DNA from: a virus
DNA length: 64,000 nt
Strand: one strand, 5' to 3'
Virus record (IMG/VR): IMGVR_UViG_3300025012_000055
Location: 27,381-91,380 of that record
In this document: positions 22,716-63,475 of the stretch, piece after piece
Layout of the letters: every line of letters starts with the position of its first letter
How positions within the stretch are numbered: position 1 is the stretch's first letter
Notes under the pieces: generated by a model
Seen by the model: only the letters and a program-made list of their open reading frames with translations
The model's database searches: none
Told to the model about the DNA's origin: nothing
Position numbers and translations under genes: made by a program

Positions 22716-24872
22716 ATGATAAAAACAATAACATATAAAAAATACAAAGATTTATTAAAACAGAATCTTAATGGGTCCCCAGTAAATATAATAGAACATA
22801 GCAATTTTGTAAAAAATTTATTTAAATTAGACAAAAAAGTTAATGACCAATTACAAAATAAAAAATATTCAAATAGTTCATGGTCAATTAGAAAACTTGA
22901 AATTGATAATTTTTTAAGTTATGGAAAAAATAATGTTATTGAGTTTGATAAATTAAATGGATTAGTAGGAATTTTTTCTAAAAATTTTATGGGGAAAACG
23001 GTGCTGTGTATCGATTCTTTATTGTTTTTATTTTTCAATACAACAACCAGAACATCAAAAAGTGAAGAAATTTTTAATTTATATACAAAGGATGATATTG
23101 TAAAAGTAAAAGGTTATATAAAAATTGATAATTCAAATTATATTATTGAAAGAGAAATAATAAGAAAATGGAAAAAAGATGGGACACCAAATTGTAGTAC
23201 TGAATTAAATTTTTATAAGGAATTAGATAATGATATAATAGAAAATTTGGAGGGGGAACAAAGACAAGAAACTGATAAAATAATCAAAAGTAAAATTGGA
23301 GATATGGAAGATTTTATTATGACTATTTTTACCACTGGTGATAATCTTATGAATTTTATTGAAACAAAACCCACAGAAAGAGGATTATTGTTGTGTAAAT
23401 TCCTTGGTTTAAATATATTCAAAGAGAAAGAAGAAATATGTAAAACAATATTTAATGATTGGAAAACAACATTAAAATCAAATTTATATAATATTCCGAC
23501 TTTAAAAAGTGAAATAGAAGAATTACAATCAGAAATAAAACAAAAAGAAACTCAGTTAAAAGAAAATAAAGATAAGTTAGTTATTGTTGAAAAAAACATA
23601 AAAGATACAAAAGAAACAAAGGATTCTTTATTATCTTCATTACATCAGGATATTGATGACAAATTATTAAAATCAGATCCTTTATTAATTGAAAATAAAA
23701 TAAGTGCAATAGAAAAAGATGTAACTAATAAAAAAAATGAATTAAAAGAAATTAAATTTAAAATTGATAATATTAAAGTAACATATAGTAAAATAGAACA
23801 TGAAAAATTAATACAAAAAGAAAGAGAACTATCCTCAAACGTAACAATATTAAAAAATGATATTGAAAGATTAGAAAAAGATATAAAAGAATTAAAAGAA
23901 GGAGAAATTTGTTCCAAATGTGGTCAATCATTAAAAGGTATTGATCATTCAAAAGAAATAAAAGAATTAAAAATTAAATTAGAATCAAATAATTTATCAT
24001 ATAAAAAATATAAAGAAGATTTGAATGGTACAGGACAACAATTAAAAGAATATAATGAAAATAAAGATAAAATAGAACAAAGAGATAAACTCCAACTTAA
24101 ATTTGATAGAACCGAAATTGAAATAGATTTATCAAATATAAATTTACAAAAAGAAAATGATAATTTAAAAAACTATCATAAAAATATTGATAAAATTAAT
24201 CAAAATAATAAAACAAATGAGAAGATAAGAGATATTAATTTTAAGGTTCATCAACAAGAAACAGATGAAAAAGAATTAATATCAATAATTAGAGAATTTG
24301 AAAATATTATTTTAAATAATAATAAGGATATTGAAGATAAAATAAAAATAGGAAAAGAAATAAGAGAAGAAGAAAAAATTTATAAAGTTTTTACTATCTA
24401 TTTAAGTTTGATGGGAAAAAATGGAATTTCCAAATCAATTTTACGTGATATGATTCCAAAATTAAATAATGAACTATCCAAATTATTGGAAGGAGTTGCA
24501 GAATTCACAGTTGAAGTATCAATCAATGAAAACAACCAGGAAATGGTATTGGATATGAAAGACAATAAAACTGGACTGATTAAATCATTAAAAACGGGTT
24601 CTGGATATGAAAGAACCATTGCCTCACTTGCATTAAGAGTAGTTTTAAATAAAATAAATTCTCTACCAAAACCAAATTTTATTATTTTTGATGAGCCGTT
24701 TGAAAAAGTATCAGAAGAGAATTTACAGGAGATGAGTTATTTTCTGGATAGAATAAAAAAGTATTATGATTTAATATTTTTGGTAACATTTAATTCTTTG
24801 GTAAAAGATTGGGTATCAAATGTTATAACAATAGAAAAAATAAATAATATTTCTACAATTAATTTGAATTAA
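22716..24872 (+). CDS. Rad50/SbcC (T4 gp46-like) recombination ATPase
   Basis: NFLSYG, NFMGKT Walker A, coiled coil with CSKCG zinc hook, SGYE signature, IIFDEPF Walker B. Confidence 0.92.
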   Translation: MIKTITYKKYKDLLKQNLNGSPVNIIEHSNFVKNLFKLDKKVNDQLQNKKYSNSSWSIRKLEIDNFLSYGKNNVIEFDKLNGLVGIFSKNFMGKTVLCIDSLLFLFFNTTTRTSKSEEIFNLYTKDDIVKVKGYIKIDNSNYIIEREIIRKWKKDGTPNCSTELNFYKELDNDIIENLEGEQRQETDKIIKSKIGDMEDFIMTIFTTGDNLMNFIETKPTERGLLLCKFLGLNIFKEKEEICKTIFNDWKTTLKSNLYNIPTLKSEIEELQSEIKQKETQLKENKDKLVIVEKNIKDTKETKDSLLSSLHQDIDDKLLKSDPLLIENKISAIEKDVTNKKNELKEIKFKIDNIKVTYSKIEHEKLIQKERELSSNVTILKNDIERLEKDIKELKEGEICSKCGQSLKGIDHSKEIKELKIKLESNNLSYKKYKEDLNGTGQQLKEYNENKDKIEQRDKLQLKFDRTEIEIDLSNINLQKENDNLKNYHKNIDKINQNNKTNEKIRDINFKVHQQETDEKELISIIREFENIILNNNKDIEDKIKIGKEIREEEKIYKVFTIYLSLMGKNGISKSILRDMIPKLNNELSKLLEGVAEFTVEVSINENNQEMVLDMKDNKTGLIKSLKTGSGYERTIASLALRVVLNKINSLPKPNFIIFDEPFEKVSEENLQEMSYFLDRIKKYYDLIFLVTFNSLVKDWVSNVITIEKINNISTINLN

Positions 24873-26178: not shown

Positions 26179-26796
26179 ATGAATAATTTTTTAAAAAATT
26201 TTAGAAGATTATCTGGAATTAAAGAACTTTCATTAACTGAAGAATTTACTGGTTTCAAAAGAATTCATGTTTTAGAAACCGTTGGCAGAGGAATATCCTC
26301 TTTACAGCTTAACGGTATTTCTATTAACAGAGATAATTCAAAAGATAATGTAATAAATTATCAAATAAAAGAAGGAATATTAACAGAAGAAAAAGAATTT
26401 GTTTTCCCGGAAAATCAAAAAGGTGGAATTATTGTTTTTTCTATTGATGTTAATAAAAAGTTTGAATATAAAAATTTAATTGATAAAATTAAAGAATGGT
26501 TTAAACAAAAATATCAATCATTATTAAACAGAATATTTAAAGATAAAAAATTATCAAAAATTATAAGTAAACATGAAGAAATAACTGGATTTAGCATCGG
26601 TAAATTTTTTAAAGGAAGATATAAATCTCCTAATGGAAAACATTATGATGAAACAAGTACATCAATTGAAATAATTGGTATTGGTTCTGAATTATTGGAA
26701 ATTGTTGCATCAAAAATTGCTAGTGAATTTAATCAGGAAAGTGTATTAGTAAAAGATTATATAAAAAATGAAATATATTTAGCAAATAAAAAATAA
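26179..26796 (+). CDS. Conserved phage hypothetical protein
   Basis: C-terminal IASEFNQESVLVKD; N-terminal FRRLSGIKE motif. Confidence 0.7.
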   Translation: MNNFLKNFRRLSGIKELSLTEEFTGFKRIHVLETVGRGISSLQLNGISINRDNSKDNVINYQIKEGILTEEKEFVFPENQKGGIIVFSIDVNKKFEYKNLIDKIKEWFKQKYQSLLNRIFKDKKLSKIISKHEEITGFSIGKFFKGRYKSPNGKHYDETSTSIEIIGIGSELLEIVASKIASEFNQESVLVKDYIKNEIYLANKK

Positions 26797-27071: not shown

Positions 27072-27138
27072 TTCATTTTATACTTGTTTATTTTAATTAT
27101 TTTACTTACTTTTGTATCTTGAAAGTATTTATAATAAA

Positions 27139-27210
27139 ATGAAAAACATAAATTTACATAATCTCCCACAGCTACCCAGTAATAAACATTGGGGTGGAAA
27201 ACTTATGTAA
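27139..27210 (+). CDS. Attenuator leader peptide 1 (MKNINLHNLPQLPSNKHWGGKLM)
   Basis: Codon run CTC CCA CAG CTA CCC matches downstream tRNAs Leu(TAG), Pro(TGG), Gln(TTG); lies between promoter and terminator. Confidence 0.8.
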   Translation: MKNINLHNLPQLPSNKHWGGKLM

Positions 27211-27237
27211 AAAAATTAAAAAAATACAATAGATTAT

Positions 27238-27277
27238 AAACCCTGATGTTCAATAAAAAAGTCATCAGGGTTTTTTT
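27238..27277 (+). terminator. Intrinsic terminator/attenuator before tRNA cluster 1
   Basis: aaaccctgatg..catcagggttttttt; the 5' arm can instead pair with 27185-27195. Confidence 0.85.
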
Positions 27278-27296: not shown

Positions 27297-27368
27297 ATGG
27301 TGTTAGTTCAGAGGCAGAACGCTACATTTGGGATGTAGAGGTCGAGATATCATAATTCTCACACCATA
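27297..27368 (+). tRNA. tRNA-Pro(TGG)
   Basis: Cloverleaf, ctaca-tttggga-tgtag; atypical T loop. Confidence 0.85.
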
Positions 27369-27385: not shown

Positions 27386-27459
27386 ATTCCAGTATCCCAA
27401 TTGGTAGAGGATATAGTATTAGAAACTATAAAGTGAGAGTTCGAATCTCTCCTGGAGTA
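27386..27459 (+). tRNA. tRNA-Leu(TAG), short variable loop
   Basis: atagt-attagaa-actat; gagag-ttcgaat-ctctc. Confidence 0.85.
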
Positions 27460-27460
27460 C

Positions 27461-27534
27461 TACCGGATCTTCTAATTTTGGCAGGAAAGCACCCTTTGAA
27501 GGTGATAATATAGGTTAGATCCCTACTCTGGTAA
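27461..27534 (+). tRNA. tRNA-Gln(TTG)
   Basis: taccgga/tctggta acceptor; cacc-ctttgaa-ggtg. Confidence 0.75.
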
Positions 27535-27638
27535 CTACAAAAATTAAAAAAATATTAGATAATACTTGTTTATTTCAATTATTTTACTTACCTTTGTATT
27601 CTAAATATCTGAATTAATAACTTAAAAACCTAAAAAAA

Positions 27639-28465: not shown

Positions 28466-28558
28466 AAAGTTTGCGTATAAGTAGGGGATTGTCGCAATAT
28501 TATTGATTTTTTAAAATATTTTACTTATATTTGTACTTTGAAACTATTTATTAAGAAA

Positions 28559-28639
28559 ATGAAAAACTGGTTAAACATATCAATTCATAGTAATAGTCGT
28601 AATATTATACGACCTGGAAGGGGTATGTTTATACAATAA
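28559..28639 (+). CDS. Attenuator leader peptide 2 (MKNWLNISIHSNSRNIIRPGRGMFIQ)
   Basis: 13 of codons 3-18 are decodable by the seven downstream tRNAs, and all seven are represented. Confidence 0.85.
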   Translation: MKNWLNISIHSNSRNIIRPGRGMFIQ

Positions 28640-28658
28640 TCATTTTTAAAAGATATAT

Positions 28659-28695
28659 AAAAAACCCCTTGGATTAAGTTTTTAAGGGGTTTTTT
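28659..28695 (+). terminator. Intrinsic terminator/attenuator before tRNA cluster 2
   Basis: aaaaaacccctt..aaggggtttttt; the 5' arm is also complementary to aaggggt 28618-28624. Confidence 0.85.
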
Positions 28696-28700
28696 AATTT

Positions 28701-28774
28701 TGGTCTGTAACTCAGAAGTTTAGAGTGCCAAGCCGTTAACTTGGAAGCCGGGATGGCAGAATTCCCCAGACCAG
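28701..28774 (+). tRNA. tRNA-Asn(GTT)
   Basis: ccaag-ccgttaa-cttgg; tggtctg/cagacca acceptor; atypical T loop. Confidence 0.8.
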
Positions 28775-28790
28775 CTGGAAATATAAAAAA

Positions 28791-28874
28791 GGAAAAGGAC
28801 TGGCATGGACGAAGAGATAGTCTTGAAAACTATTGTGTGTAAAAACATCGTGAGTTCGATTCTCACCTTTTCCG
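28791..28874 (+). tRNA. tRNA-Ser(TGA)
   Basis: atagt-cttgaaa-actat, long variable arm, G73. Confidence 0.85.
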
Positions 28875-28888
28875 CTTTTTTAAAAAAC

Positions 28889-28959
28889 AGGTTCTTGGTG
28901 TAATGGCAGCATCTGAAATTCCAAACTTCAGGGTATGGGTTCGAATCCTATAAAACTTG
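28889..28959 (+). tRNA. tRNA-Trp(CCA)
   Basis: tgaaa-ttccaaa-cttca; atggg-ttcgaat-cctat; G73. Confidence 0.8.
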
Positions 28960-28960
28960 C

Positions 28961-29046
28961 GGAAAATAAACCAATCAGGGTATTGGGCCTATTTGCTAAA
29001 TAGTGCGTTCTGTAAAAAGAATGTGTTTCAAATACTCTGTCCTCCG
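28961..29046 (+). tRNA. tRNA-Ser(GCT), degenerate
   Basis: ctat-ttgctaa-atag, long variable arm; mismatches in acceptor and T stems. Confidence 0.6.
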
Positions 29047-29057
29047 CAAAATTATAT

Positions 29058-29130
29058 TGACCAGTAGCTCAATTGGTGGAGCAACATTCTGATGAAATGA
29101 AGGTCGAAGGTTCAAATCCTTCCTGGTCAA
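29058..29130 (+). tRNA. tRNA-Ile(GAT)
   Basis: catt-ctgatga-aatg; tgaccag/ctggtca. Confidence 0.88.
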
Positions 29131-29139
29131 CAAAAAACT

Positions 29140-29212
29140 ATTTTCTTAGTTTAACTGGATAAAATATTTGGCTACGAACCAAAAGATGAGAGTTCGAATC
29201 TTTCAGAAAATA
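29140..29212 (+). tRNA. tRNA-Arg(ACG)
   Basis: tttgg-ctacgaa-ccaaa; attttct/agaaaat. Confidence 0.85.
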
Positions 29213-29227
29213 CATTATAATTAATAT

Positions 29228-29302
29228 GGTGCTATTGTTGTAAATTGGTGAGCATAGAAAACTGTGAATTTTCAGGTAAAGGTTCAATTCCTTTATGGCA
29301 CC
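29228..29302 (+). tRNA. tRNA-His(GTG)
   Basis: gaaaa-ctgtgaa-ttttc; G-1:C73. Confidence 0.88.
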
Positions 29303-29310
29303 CAATAATC

Positions 29311-30003
29311 TTAATTTAATAATTCAAAAACTTCTTTTATTCCTTCACTAGCTTTTTTATTAATATAAGTAATTTCCATTCCAATTTTACTTAAACTTTT
29401 AACTGGGTTTGGATCAATAAAAAATACTTCACAAGATAATTTTATATAAGTTAACATTTGAAAACAATAATGGATAAATAAAGAAGTTCCAATTATTATT
29501 AAATAATCACATTTTTCAATTGTTTTATATGATTCTTCAATATTACAAGGATATTCCCCAAACCAAACAACATGAGGTCTTAATTGTGAGCCATTTTCAC
29601 ATTTATCACCCAACTTTATATCATTATAACCACAATCATATATTAAATCTTCATCTGATGAGCTTTGAGATTTTGTAAGTTCCCCATGAATGTGAATAAC
29701 ATTTGAAGAGCCACCCCTTTCATGTAAATTATCAACATTTTGAGTTATCACGGTAACATCAAAATTATTTTCAAGTTCTGCAATTAATTTATGCGCCAGA
29801 TTTGGTTTTACATTTTCCAGTTGCCTTCTTCTTTCGTTATAAAAATCTAAAACTTTTTGTTTATCTTTGTGCCATGCACTTATTGTTGCAACATCATCTA
29901 TTTTATGGTTTAACCATAAACCATTTTTTCCTGTCCTGAATGTTGGGATGCCAGATTCCTCACTTACGCCCGCACCAGTAAAAACAACTATTTTCTTTTT
30001 CAT
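29311..30003 (-). CDS. cobB: Sir2/CobB NAD-dependent deacylase
   Basis: TGAGVSEESGIPTFR, TQNVDNLHE, HGE, LRPHVVWFGE, IGTS. Confidence 0.93.
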   Translation of the reverse strand: MKKKIVVFTGAGVSEESGIPTFRTGKNGLWLNHKIDDVATISAWHKDKQKVLDFYNERRRQLENVKPNLAHKLIAELENNFDVTVITQNVDNLHERGGSSNVIHIHGELTKSQSSSDEDLIYDCGYNDIKLGDKCENGSQLRPHVVWFGEYPCNIEESYKTIEKCDYLIIIGTSLFIHYCFQMLTYIKLSCEVFFIDPNPVKSLSKIGMEITYINKKASEGIKEVFELLN

Positions 30004-61507: not shown

Positions 61508-61579
61508 TTAAATAATTTTTTTAATTAATCTATTGACTTTTTAGAATATTTTATTTATCTTTGTATTTATAATAATATA

Positions 61580-61660
61580 ATGAAACAGATAACGACATAT
61601 TTTGGTGGAAATGGTGATGGCACAACTGATGCGATAACCATAATGGCCAGATTATGTTAA
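61580..61660 (+). CDS. Attenuator leader peptide 3 (MKQITTYFGGNGDGTTDAITIMARLC)
   Basis: TTT GGT GGA..GGT GAT GGC..GAT GCG match downstream tRNAs Phe, Gly, Asp, Ala. Confidence 0.8.
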   Translation: MKQITTYFGGNGDGTTDAITIMARLC

Positions 61661-61681
61661 AAATATAAATAACAACTATAT

Positions 61682-61716
61682 AAAAACCCTGGCTAATAAA
61701 AAGTCAGGGTTTTTTT
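61682..61716 (+). terminator. Intrinsic terminator/attenuator before tRNA cluster 3
   Basis: aaaaaccctggct..agtcagggttttttt; the 5' arm is complementary to tggccag 61644-61650. Confidence 0.85.
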
Positions 61717-61731
61717 GTTTATATGATAAAT

Positions 61732-61808
61732 GGTGATACAGCATATTGGTGCATGTTGCTTCCCTGTCACGGAAGAGATTGTCGGTTCAAATCCGTCTAT
61801 CACCGCCA
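61732..61808 (+). tRNA. tRNA-Asp(GTC)
   Basis: cttcc-ctgtcac-ggaag; G73 and encoded CCA. Confidence 0.88.
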
Positions 61809-61809
61809 A

Positions 61810-61882
61810 GGAACTTTGGTGTAGGTGGTCTGCACAACTGTTTGAAGCACAGTGGGTCTTTGTTCGATTCAAAGAGGTTCCA
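61810..61882 (+). tRNA. tRNA-Phe(GAA)
   Basis: actgt-ttgaagc-acagt; ggaactt/aggttcc. Confidence 0.85.
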
Positions 61883-61902
61883 CAAGGTTATTCATTTTTA
61901 CA

Positions 61903-63132
61903 TCAAACATTACATTTGAGTTCAAATGATTTTACAAATTCAACTTTGTATGGGTTAAACCCTAACCCTATATTCCTTATGTTACTTATGAATTTTTCAC
62001 ATTCAGGAATTACTTTTGATTTTAACATTATTCCAATTGCACCATTAACATCAGCATTTATTGTTTTGCCAATACTACTTAAAAATAAACCACGCTTTAT
62101 TCTTTTGCCAAGATAAATTGCTTGTTTTTGTATCGGTTCAAATGCCAAATGGTCGCATTTACTGGTATAACTTTCTTCCTGCTCAACAAGTTTTATGCTG
62201 TTGAGTTCTAACTTATATTTTATTTTATCTATAAGTTTGGCATGAGGGATAGAAACAAAATTCTGGTTATTACGGCTACCAATATTTATTTTCTTCTTCC
62301 AATGTTCATTTTTACCGATAACAACTGTCCCAATATTATACTTTAAACAGTATTTAAGAATGAAATCGCCTACCTGGTGCATTGCATTTTCTATCTTGTT
62401 ATTCCTGTCAAAAGTTAATTTATTTATTCTGTTTGACGTCCCTTTATTACCAACATAACTCATTAACTTGGCTCGCTTTTTATTAAAATACGCATTGATG
62501 GATTTTAATCCTCTACCGTTGATAATGAAAGGATTATTACCGACATTATCTATTGCTGTGATAAGATTGTTTAATCCCAAATCAATGCTTAATACATTTT
62601 CTTCTTTTATTTTTTCATGTTTTACCTCCTTTTTTTCATAGACAACTTCTATTACAAAACAAGTTGCTTGTGGAATTATTCTCACTTGTGATATATTATC
62701 TACTTTTGTTTTTAATGGTTGAATATTTGCTTGTTTTGGAAAATGTATAAGTCCCCCTTTTAAATTAACTTGCTGATTAGTGAAAATGCAAATAGAATAT
62801 CCAGCCTTATCTTTGTATTTTGGTTGCTTAGGGTTTCCTTTAAATTTGCTTGGGCATTTTTTATATTCTTTTAATGCTTTGAAATATGACTTCCAGTTCT
62901 TAAAAAGTAATTTTATTATTTGCTGCGATGTTTGTGCCGGCAATGCCCTATAATCTTCCTGGTTAAATTCAGCAAGCAATTTAGATAATTCATATTCCTC
63001 AAATTTCTGTATATTACCAAAAAATGCTTGCCGTTTGTGATAATTACAAAAATTATACAATCTGGCTGATTTAAAACAAATATCCTCTATTGCTTTATCG
63101 TTTATCCTAATATGTCGCTCTACGAGTTGCAT
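61903..63132 (-). mobile_element. tnpB: TnpB (MQLVE-type) inserted within tRNA cluster 3
   Basis: SIDLG, INGRGLKSIN, EESYTSKC, GKRIKRGLF, NADVNGA. Confidence 0.92.
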
Positions 63133-63251
63133 TATTTATATAAAACTTAAAGTTTTACACTTATAAATATCTTTCTAAAATAAAAAACTCAATAAAATGA
63201 ATACATAAGAAATAAATAATATCAAAAATTACTATTTATATAAGATAATGT

Positions 63252-63327
63252 GCATCAGTAGCTCAATTGGTAGAGCGCCGGTCTTCCAAATCGGAGGTTG
63301 TGGGATCATAGCCCATCTGATGCTCCA
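63252..63327 (+). tRNA. tRNA-Gly(TCC)
   Basis: ccggt-cttccaa-atcgg; U73 and CCA. Confidence 0.88.
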
Positions 63328-63342
63328 GATTAAATAAAATAT

Positions 63343-63415
63343 GGGGGTACATGTACCAAGGCTGGCGAAGAGCATTTGCAATGCTTTTGGGTGGATTGGA
63401 TTTCCACTATCTCCA
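63343..63415 (+). tRNA. tRNA-Ala(TGC)
   Basis: gagca-tttgcaa-tgctt; G3:U70; A73. Confidence 0.8.
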
Positions 63416-63475
63416 CTAAATATATAAATGATTTCTTTTTCAATCATCAAACTATTTATATAAAAATATATTCTT

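Follow-up and report, generated by a model that had tools for sequence, protein, structure and literature searches.

The regulation and the purpose of phage tRNA genes have long been debated, with codon compensation and defence evasion as the main views. The locus described here, a small tRNA cluster that is preceded by a short open reading frame and a terminator, raises the question whether a phage could use the translation of a leader peptide to decide when its tRNA genes are transcribed. It lies in a stretch of 64,000 nucleotides, in the following called the window, which is the final part of a virus record of 91,380 bp with a G+C content of 25.8%. The DNA of the window is present in groundwater and soil metagenomes, and the phage is uncultured. 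The genome contains three tRNA clusters, which are arranged alike, and each is preceded by a different, matching leader. The first of them, unit 1, is probably a functional ribosome-mediated (leader-peptide) attenuator that gates a cluster of tRNA-Pro, tRNA-Leu, and tRNA-Gln, as judged from its sequence and from that of related units in other phages.

A candidate attenuator in front of tRNA-Pro, tRNA-Leu, and tRNA-Gln

The 18-nt promoter motif ATTTTACTTACNTTTGTA is present in 17 near-identical copies in the window, compared to 2.7 expected copies. It carries the Bacteroidota -7 box TAnnTTTG and recurs before phage genes. The copies include those of the three tRNA units, at 27099, 28518, and 61548, and further sites at 2945, 8980, 12137, 14756, 17840, 26824, and 27581. 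A second motif, TATTTAT(A/T)A, is found between the 18-nt motif and many start codons. An ORF of 23-26 codons together with a compact terminator exists only behind the three promoter copies that face tRNA clusters. A terminator scan of the plus strand listed seven sites. Four of them are compact hairpins with a G+C core and a T-run behind it, and the three tRNA-cluster units of the window account for three of the four (Table 1).

Table 1. Positions of the features of the three tRNA units in the window, and of an ORF in three other phages (last line)
Feature	Position	Strand	Description
Unit 1 promoter, -7 region	27099-27116	+	Recurrent Bacteroidota-type motif with TAnnTTTG box
Leader ORF 1	27139-27210	+	23 codons plus stop; ATG 27139, TAA 27208-27210
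Putative sensing run CTC CCA CAG CTA CCC	27163-27177	+	Leu-Pro-Gln-Leu-Pro; overlaps region 1
Region 1	27166-27180	+	Partner of region 2 when the leader is not translated (minimum-energy folds)
Region 2, antiterminator 5' strand	27185-27197	+	Inside codons 16-20; 27185-27195 is AACATTGGGGT
Region 3, terminator 5' arm and antiterminator 3' strand	27238-27250	+	
Region 4	27263-27277	+	Terminator 3' arm 27263-27273 and U-tract 27271-27277
tRNA-Pro(UGG)	27297-27368	+	Rfam tRNA, 49.1 bits; anticodon loop UUUGGGA; atypical T-loop
tRNA-Leu(UAG)	27386-27460	+	ARAGORN and Rfam
tRNA-Gln(UUG)	27461-27535	+	Rfam, 37.5 bits; relaxed ARAGORN
Unit 2	28518-29303	+	Promoter 28518-28535; leader ORF 28559-28639
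Unit 2, continued		+	Region 2 28612-28625; terminator 28658-28696
Unit 2 tRNAs		+	Asn(GUU), Ser(UGA), Trp(CCA), Ser(GCU), Ile(GAU), Arg(ACG), His(GUG)
Unit 3	61548-63416	+	Promoter 61548-61565; leader ORF 61580-61660
Unit 3, continued		+	Region 2 61644-61651; terminator 61682-61714
Unit 3 tRNAs		+	Asp(GUC), Phe(GAA), [reverse-strand TnpB-like gene], Gly(UCC), Ala(UGC)
Conserved 57-61-residue ORF	L117:9468-9641; L123:1435-1608; L126:1163-1348		L123 and L126 as reverse complements

The leader ORF of unit 1 begins at the first ATG past the promoter, 22 nt beyond the -7 box, and its run Leu-Pro-Gln-Leu-Pro stands in front of genes for exactly these three acceptors, i.e., it consists of codons for the amino acids carried by the tRNAs that the unit supplies. 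The first-pass annotation of this DNA, the features of which were all found at the positions given there, had pointed out that the run uses CUN leucine codons in place of the preferred TTA. This is borne out by the codon usage in the long ORFs (48.3 TTA, 4.0 CTA, and 1.9 CTC per 1000 codons). The genome also disfavours CAG (4.8 per 1000, versus 27.9 for CAA) and CCC (2.7 per 1000, versus 17.1 for CCA), and therefore the run is one of rare codons. Rare or wobble-read codons in this unit would raise the sensitivity of the sensor.

How unusual the run is depends on the decoding rule. The four-codon-box rule assumes that a tRNA with U34 reads the whole box and thus counts CTC and CCC as cognate. 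Under this rule, a five-codon run from CTN, CCN, and CAR within 22 codons has a p-value of 6e-5, the best-10 score of the leader is 5, and the leader is the only one among the 554 small ATG-ORFs of the 91-kb genome to contain such a run. Strict wobble leaves CCA, CAG, and CTA as the sole cognate codons of the run (3 of 22 codons, p = 0.13, not significant alone). Over its whole length the leader has no excess of codons for its own set (richness 0.32, versus 0.41 for the set of cluster 2), and its specificity for its own tRNAs is confined to the run.

An A-rich spacer of 27 nt separates the leader ORF from the terminator hairpin, in which 27238-27248 pair with 27263-27273 (11 bp, 14-nt loop, -15.1 kcal/mol) and which is followed by seven T. 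An 11-bp antiterminator had been proposed in the first-pass annotation, and this 2:3 pairing of AACATTGGGGT (27185-27195) with ACCCTGATGTT (27240-27250) was recovered with two G-U pairs and an energy of -13.1 kcal/mol, or -14.9 kcal/mol when extended. Its p-value is 0.0075 versus dinucleotide shuffles and 0.011 versus random genome segments. The pairing would sequester the 5' arm of the terminator, and region 1, its competitor for region 2, overlaps the sensing codons. The alternative partner that had been suggested for region 2, CTACCC (27172-27177), is able to pair with it (6 bp, -8.9 kcal/mol); in its place, the minimum-energy fold pairs CCAC...CCCAGT (27166-27180) with ATTGGGGTGG (27188-27197). 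The inner 1:2 hairpin has an energy of -10.1 kcal/mol, or -15.9 kcal/mol including an outer stem of 27153-27161 with 27203-27211, and folding of the entire stretch of 171 nt yields -34.2 kcal/mol (z = -4.3). The reading of the locus as a classic 1:2 / 2:3 / 3:4 arrangement is therefore supported, and every element that defines a leader-peptide attenuator at the level of the sequence is present in unit 1.

Co-transcriptional folding, which had been named as a check of this layout, was simulated with a ribosome mask. Nascent transcripts were cut before the terminator 3' arm, and a footprint from A-15 to A+13 was masked. An A site anywhere up to CTA freed region 2 for region 3 (P about 0.8). The probability of the 2:3 pairing was 0.82 with the A site at CTA, 0.60 at CCC, and 0.30-0.40 from Ser14 onward. 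The layout is thus upheld, with a fall from about 0.8 to 0.3-0.4 one or two codons past CTA. A ribosome at any codon from 2 to 12, and not at the run alone, permitted the antiterminator, and in the truncated transcript without a ribosome it still formed with P = 0.37. In equilibrium folding the terminator always won (P = 0.95). Therefore, the switch would have to be kinetic, which is also true for classical attenuators.

The first tRNA begins 20 nt past the T-run of the terminator, and no copy of the promoter motif was found between the terminator and the tRNAs, so that the three tRNAs should be made solely by terminator read-through. The tRNAs were called with Rfam and relaxed ARAGORN, and the anticodons UGG, UAG, and UUG were confirmed from the Rfam alignments. 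At default settings, ARAGORN reports Leu alone for this cluster and misses 6 of the 14 tRNAs of the window. The tRNA-Pro(UGG), which is without the usual GTTC in its T-loop, was missed by relaxed ARAGORN too, and the tRNA-Asn at 28701-28774 was likewise missed by ARAGORN.

Taken by itself, unit 1 is moderately significant. It suggests an attenuator and does not prove it, because the strict-wobble match is not significant and the p-value of the 2:3 pairing is about 0.01. The metagenome copies of this stretch are identical across the attenuator and therefore offer no natural variants of it. A search for relatives via neighbouring proteins (encoded at 26179-26796 and 22716-24872) yielded no match in viral contigs. 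The gene after cluster 3 led to 80 loci, none of them with nearby tRNAs, which were used solely as entry points to whole records. The metagenome runs X6 and X7 contain contigs that agree with the window through the promoter and the first 14 nt of leader 1 but diverge at 27152-27153; related phages may have different versions of the leader, or different genes, behind this promoter.

Leaders and tRNA sets in nine phage genomes

It is the comparative evidence that carries the case for an attenuator, as far as sequences can make it. Within the window, the leader of unit 2 contains 13 cognate codons among 25 under strict wobble, with a run of nine, and for the codon set of its cluster it ranks first of the 554 small ORFs. 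The leader of unit 3 ranks second of the 554 for its own codon set. In total, 19 such units were found in nine phage genomes. Some of them can be grouped into homologous families, e.g., a Pro/His/Gln family of unit 1, L114:1410-1555, L163:632-777, and L001:3480-3633. The amino acids of the leader shift with the set of tRNAs behind it, and the 3' part of the leader shifts with the arm of the terminator.

Two cultured phages contain units of this type. Cellulophaga phage phi19:1, which was reached via a weak tRNA match, has a promoter, a 30-codon ORF with the run HIQRLPQP, and a terminator before tRNAs for Pro, Gln, His, Leu, and Arg. In its relative phi10:1, also a cultured Cellulophaga phage, the upstream 83 nt are 95% identical up to the ATG, and behind this ATG follows a different leader with the run WSYSCFSYSF before tRNAs for Tyr, Trp, Phe, Ser, and Cys. 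Judged from the two sequences, this is a natural swap: one promoter, another leader, and correspondingly other tRNAs. A third relative, Nekkels_1, contains neither the leader nor the tRNAs at that site.

Further units were found by whole-record tRNA searches of distant relatives. A 156-kb IMG/VR phage record (G002) has three units, among them HIQPQPQQHPQ before Pro, His, and Gln, and YYYGKKSYKK before Lys and Tyr. The complete genomes of three jumbo phages (G008, G009, and G010; 340-360 kb) contain seven units. Examples are FEFSFEAAEDD before Phe, Glu, Asp, and Ala, and an 18-residue run before Pro, Tyr, Gln, Lys, Leu, Thr, and Gly. Four additional units, with matched runs of 8, 8, 11, and 12 residues, stem from two loci (L146 and L163) in a survey of 80 unrelated phage loci that share the tRNA-Pro anticodon arm; upper-bound p-values are 3e-7 to 6e-7 for the runs of 11 and 12 residues and the L163 run of eight. 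This survey revealed 32 tRNA runs behind a terminator-like hairpin, and only these four units, in two phages, had clearly matched leaders. Many other phage tRNA clusters that were examined were without such a leader. The device is thus common in some lineages and not universal.

The second half of the switch, the complementarity between leader and terminator, was scored in 15 units, and for two terminators with internal loops the arms were set explicitly. In all 15 units the 3' segment of the leader is complementary to the 5' arm of the terminator, with energies from -8.5 to -16.9 kcal/mol and p-values that do not exceed 0.075 in 13 units and 0.08 in any of the 15. The Fisher-combined p-values versus dinucleotide shuffles are 1e-9 for the first eight units and 6e-8 for the next seven. 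When every leader was paired with every arm in a 15 x 15 matrix, the own leader was the best partner in 12 units and the second-best in the remaining three, and the mean energy was -11.6 kcal/mol for own pairings versus -6.3 kcal/mol for the others (permutation p <= 1e-5). The antiterminator thus appears to be conserved as a relation, and not as a sequence.

Ribosome-mask folding of eight units connects the two halves. The probability of the antiterminator was 0.6-0.88 with the ribosome up to about the last matched codon, and then dropped sharply. In seven of the eight units the drop and the last matched codon lay no more than about two codons apart; in unit 2 the drop came a few codons before the run ended. 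At the level of the sequence, the parts of these units, their geometry, and their co-variation across phages are established.

Competing explanations, proposed mechanism, and known attenuators

The folding results of unit 1 alone would also fit a general sensor of translation capacity, in which any slowing of ribosomes, be it by host shut-off, ribosome damage, or amino-acid starvation, opens the terminator and the identities of the codons add little specificity. The leader would still couple read-through to translation. Such a sensor would explain why the antiterminator is permitted wherever the masked ribosome stands between codon 2 and codon 12, and why leader 1 manages with only three cognate codons under strict wobble. 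It gives, however, no reason to expect that the composition of the leader follows the tRNA set in 19 units, including the swap between phi19:1 and phi10:1. The last permissive stall position also falls at about the end of the matched run, and we regard such a sensor as unlikely.

Still less probable is that unit 1 is an ordinary small early gene with a leaky terminator, constitutive read-through, and a codon match and 2:3 complementarity that arose by chance. For unit 1 taken singly this reading has some appeal, as its pairing has a p-value of only about 0.01 and AT-rich genomes hold many small ORFs, 554 in this case. However, chance would need to have produced the same combination in 19 units of nine phages with differing sequences, and it would leave unexplained that the combination of a 23-26-codon ORF and a compact terminator is restricted to the three promoters that face tRNAs. 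The remaining candidate dispenses with the ribosome: in a T-box-type RNA sensor, codon-like triplets would pair with the anticodons of tRNAs and stabilise the antiterminator. The regulated signal would indeed be a tRNA, and T-boxes also switch between terminator and antiterminator. But the triplets are in one frame, between a stop codon and an ATG that is placed like other gene starts, and a leader can contain up to a dozen different codons, versus the single specifier of a T-box. In addition, neither the T-box family (RF00230), with its Stem I, specifier loop, and conserved T-box sequence, nor any other cis-regulatory family of Rfam had a match at E <= 1 between 26000 and 30000. A sensor of this kind is therefore extremely improbable.

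We thus favour ribosome-mediated attenuation. Because the leader is written in the codons of the tRNAs behind it, the phage most likely makes these tRNAs only when the codons are read slowly. From the arrangement we infer that the leader is translated, that ribosomes stall in it, and that read-through is regulated, in the following way. Transcription would start at the promoter of unit 1, and the 23-codon leader would be translated while it is being made. If charged tRNAs for the run are plentiful, the ribosome would reach the stop codon. Region 2 would by then be covered by the ribosome or lie behind it, or it would have re-paired with region 1 in the wake of the ribosome. The 3:4 terminator could then form, and RNA polymerase would come to a halt at the U-tract, 20 nt short of the first tRNA. 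If any one tRNA of the run is scarce, the ribosome would stall within the run and cover region 1, region 2 would pair with the emerging region 3 and thereby block the terminator, and the three tRNA genes would be transcribed. As the product is a tRNA, the logical signal would be the supply of charged tRNAs for the listed codons, and because the new tRNAs would relieve the stall, the circuit would be self-limiting.

Multi-amino-acid leaders have precedents among the amino-acid operons of enterobacteria. The ilvGMEDA leader senses Ile, Leu, and Val, the thr leader senses Thr and Ile, and shortage of any sensed aminoacyl-tRNA leads to read-through. The phage units resemble them in their short leader with codons for several amino acids, their 1:2, 2:3, and 3:4 hairpins, and the terminator before the genes. 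They differ in that the regulated genes are phage tRNA genes and not genes for biosynthetic enzymes, that a leader lists up to about seven amino acids, and that the hosts use Bacteroidota-type promoters. As the regulated product is a tRNA, its synthesis would relieve a shortage of tRNA, and not of an amino acid. With trpL, hisL, leuL, and pheL the units share mechanism and geometry, the sensing codons being located just upstream of region 2; these leaders repeat one codon, whereas those of the phages have a mixed run that mirrors the content of the cluster. A functional parallel in the translation apparatus is pheM of Escherichia coli, an attenuator that controls one of its components, the Phe-tRNA synthetase encoded by pheST, by tRNA charging; it is chromosomal, acts on a synthetase gene, and senses one amino acid, in which the phage units differ. 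T-box riboswitches likewise sense the status of tRNAs and switch between terminator and antiterminator, but they bind uncharged tRNA directly and without a ribosome, by means of the conserved Stem I and T-box sequence that are absent here.

Phage tRNA arrays have been discussed in terms of codon compensation or of resistance to host defences that target tRNAs (eLife 2023, PMC10264068; Nature 2024, PMC11464382). These two studies deal with the same genes and offer a reason for a phage to depend on the supply of particular tRNAs, and the titles and abstract openings of both bear no sign of control by a leader or an attenuator. A full-text literature search, with most subscription journals outside its coverage, found no description of such a control of tRNA genes. 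The novelty lies in the target, i.e., tRNA genes, in the carrier, i.e., phages with promoters of the Bacteroidota type, and in a leader that mirrors the cluster like a checklist.

If the proposed mechanism is correct, such phages follow the supply of tRNAs at the level of single codons and express their own tRNAs when these are needed, and classical attenuation would be extended from amino-acid operons to tRNA genes. It would also provide a sequence rule for which tRNAs share one transcription unit, and compact, programmable, codon-specific sensors for Bacteroidota. The idea can be put to a direct test, as units of this kind are present in two cultured phages of Cellulophaga, phi19:1 and phi10:1. 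A more far-reaching possibility, which we consider doubtful at present, is that the leader-terminator-tRNA cassettes are mobile self-regulating modules. The multi-codon leader would then be an OR-gate on the pool of charged tRNAs, which switches on exactly the matching tRNAs when host tRNAs run short. The phage would thereby sense and repair damage to the pool on demand, and its tRNAs would not be made constitutively. In that case the triggers might be, e.g., host shut-off or the cleavage of tRNAs by anticodon nucleases of anti-phage defence systems.

Additional features of the tRNA regions

Some further features of the tRNA regions are worth recording. Cluster 3 of the window is split between tRNA-Phe and tRNA-Gly by a TnpB-like ORF on the reverse strand (61903-63132, 409 residues), which has OrfB_IS605 and Cas12f1-like TNB domains, and leader 3 lists amino acids of both sides of the split. 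The end of cluster 2 is abutted, on the opposite strand, by a Sir2-like gene (29311-30003, minus strand; phrog_2162, E = 5e-47).

The three jumbo phages contain His-Trp-Ser(-Asn) clusters without a leader and terminator, upstream of which a conserved ORF of 57-61 residues is located (Table 1). In one of these phages (G008, L120), a promoter, a terminator, and the in-frame matched run QYTQGVKPSGTG are found at about 760-930, upstream of a tRNA-Pro at 942, in a unit with tRNAs for Pro, Gln, Tyr, Thr, Gly, and Lys. A TAA occupies the expected place of the start codon, which indicates either a decayed leader or an unusual start. The tRNA region of the 156-kb relative contains a tmRNA gene (L114:7248-7610, Rfam 68.6 bits), and relaxed ARAGORN reported candidate suppressor tRNAs with the anticodons CTA or TTA, which match stop codons, in several large phage records, including L117:6234, L119:5242, L130:470, and L146:7415.
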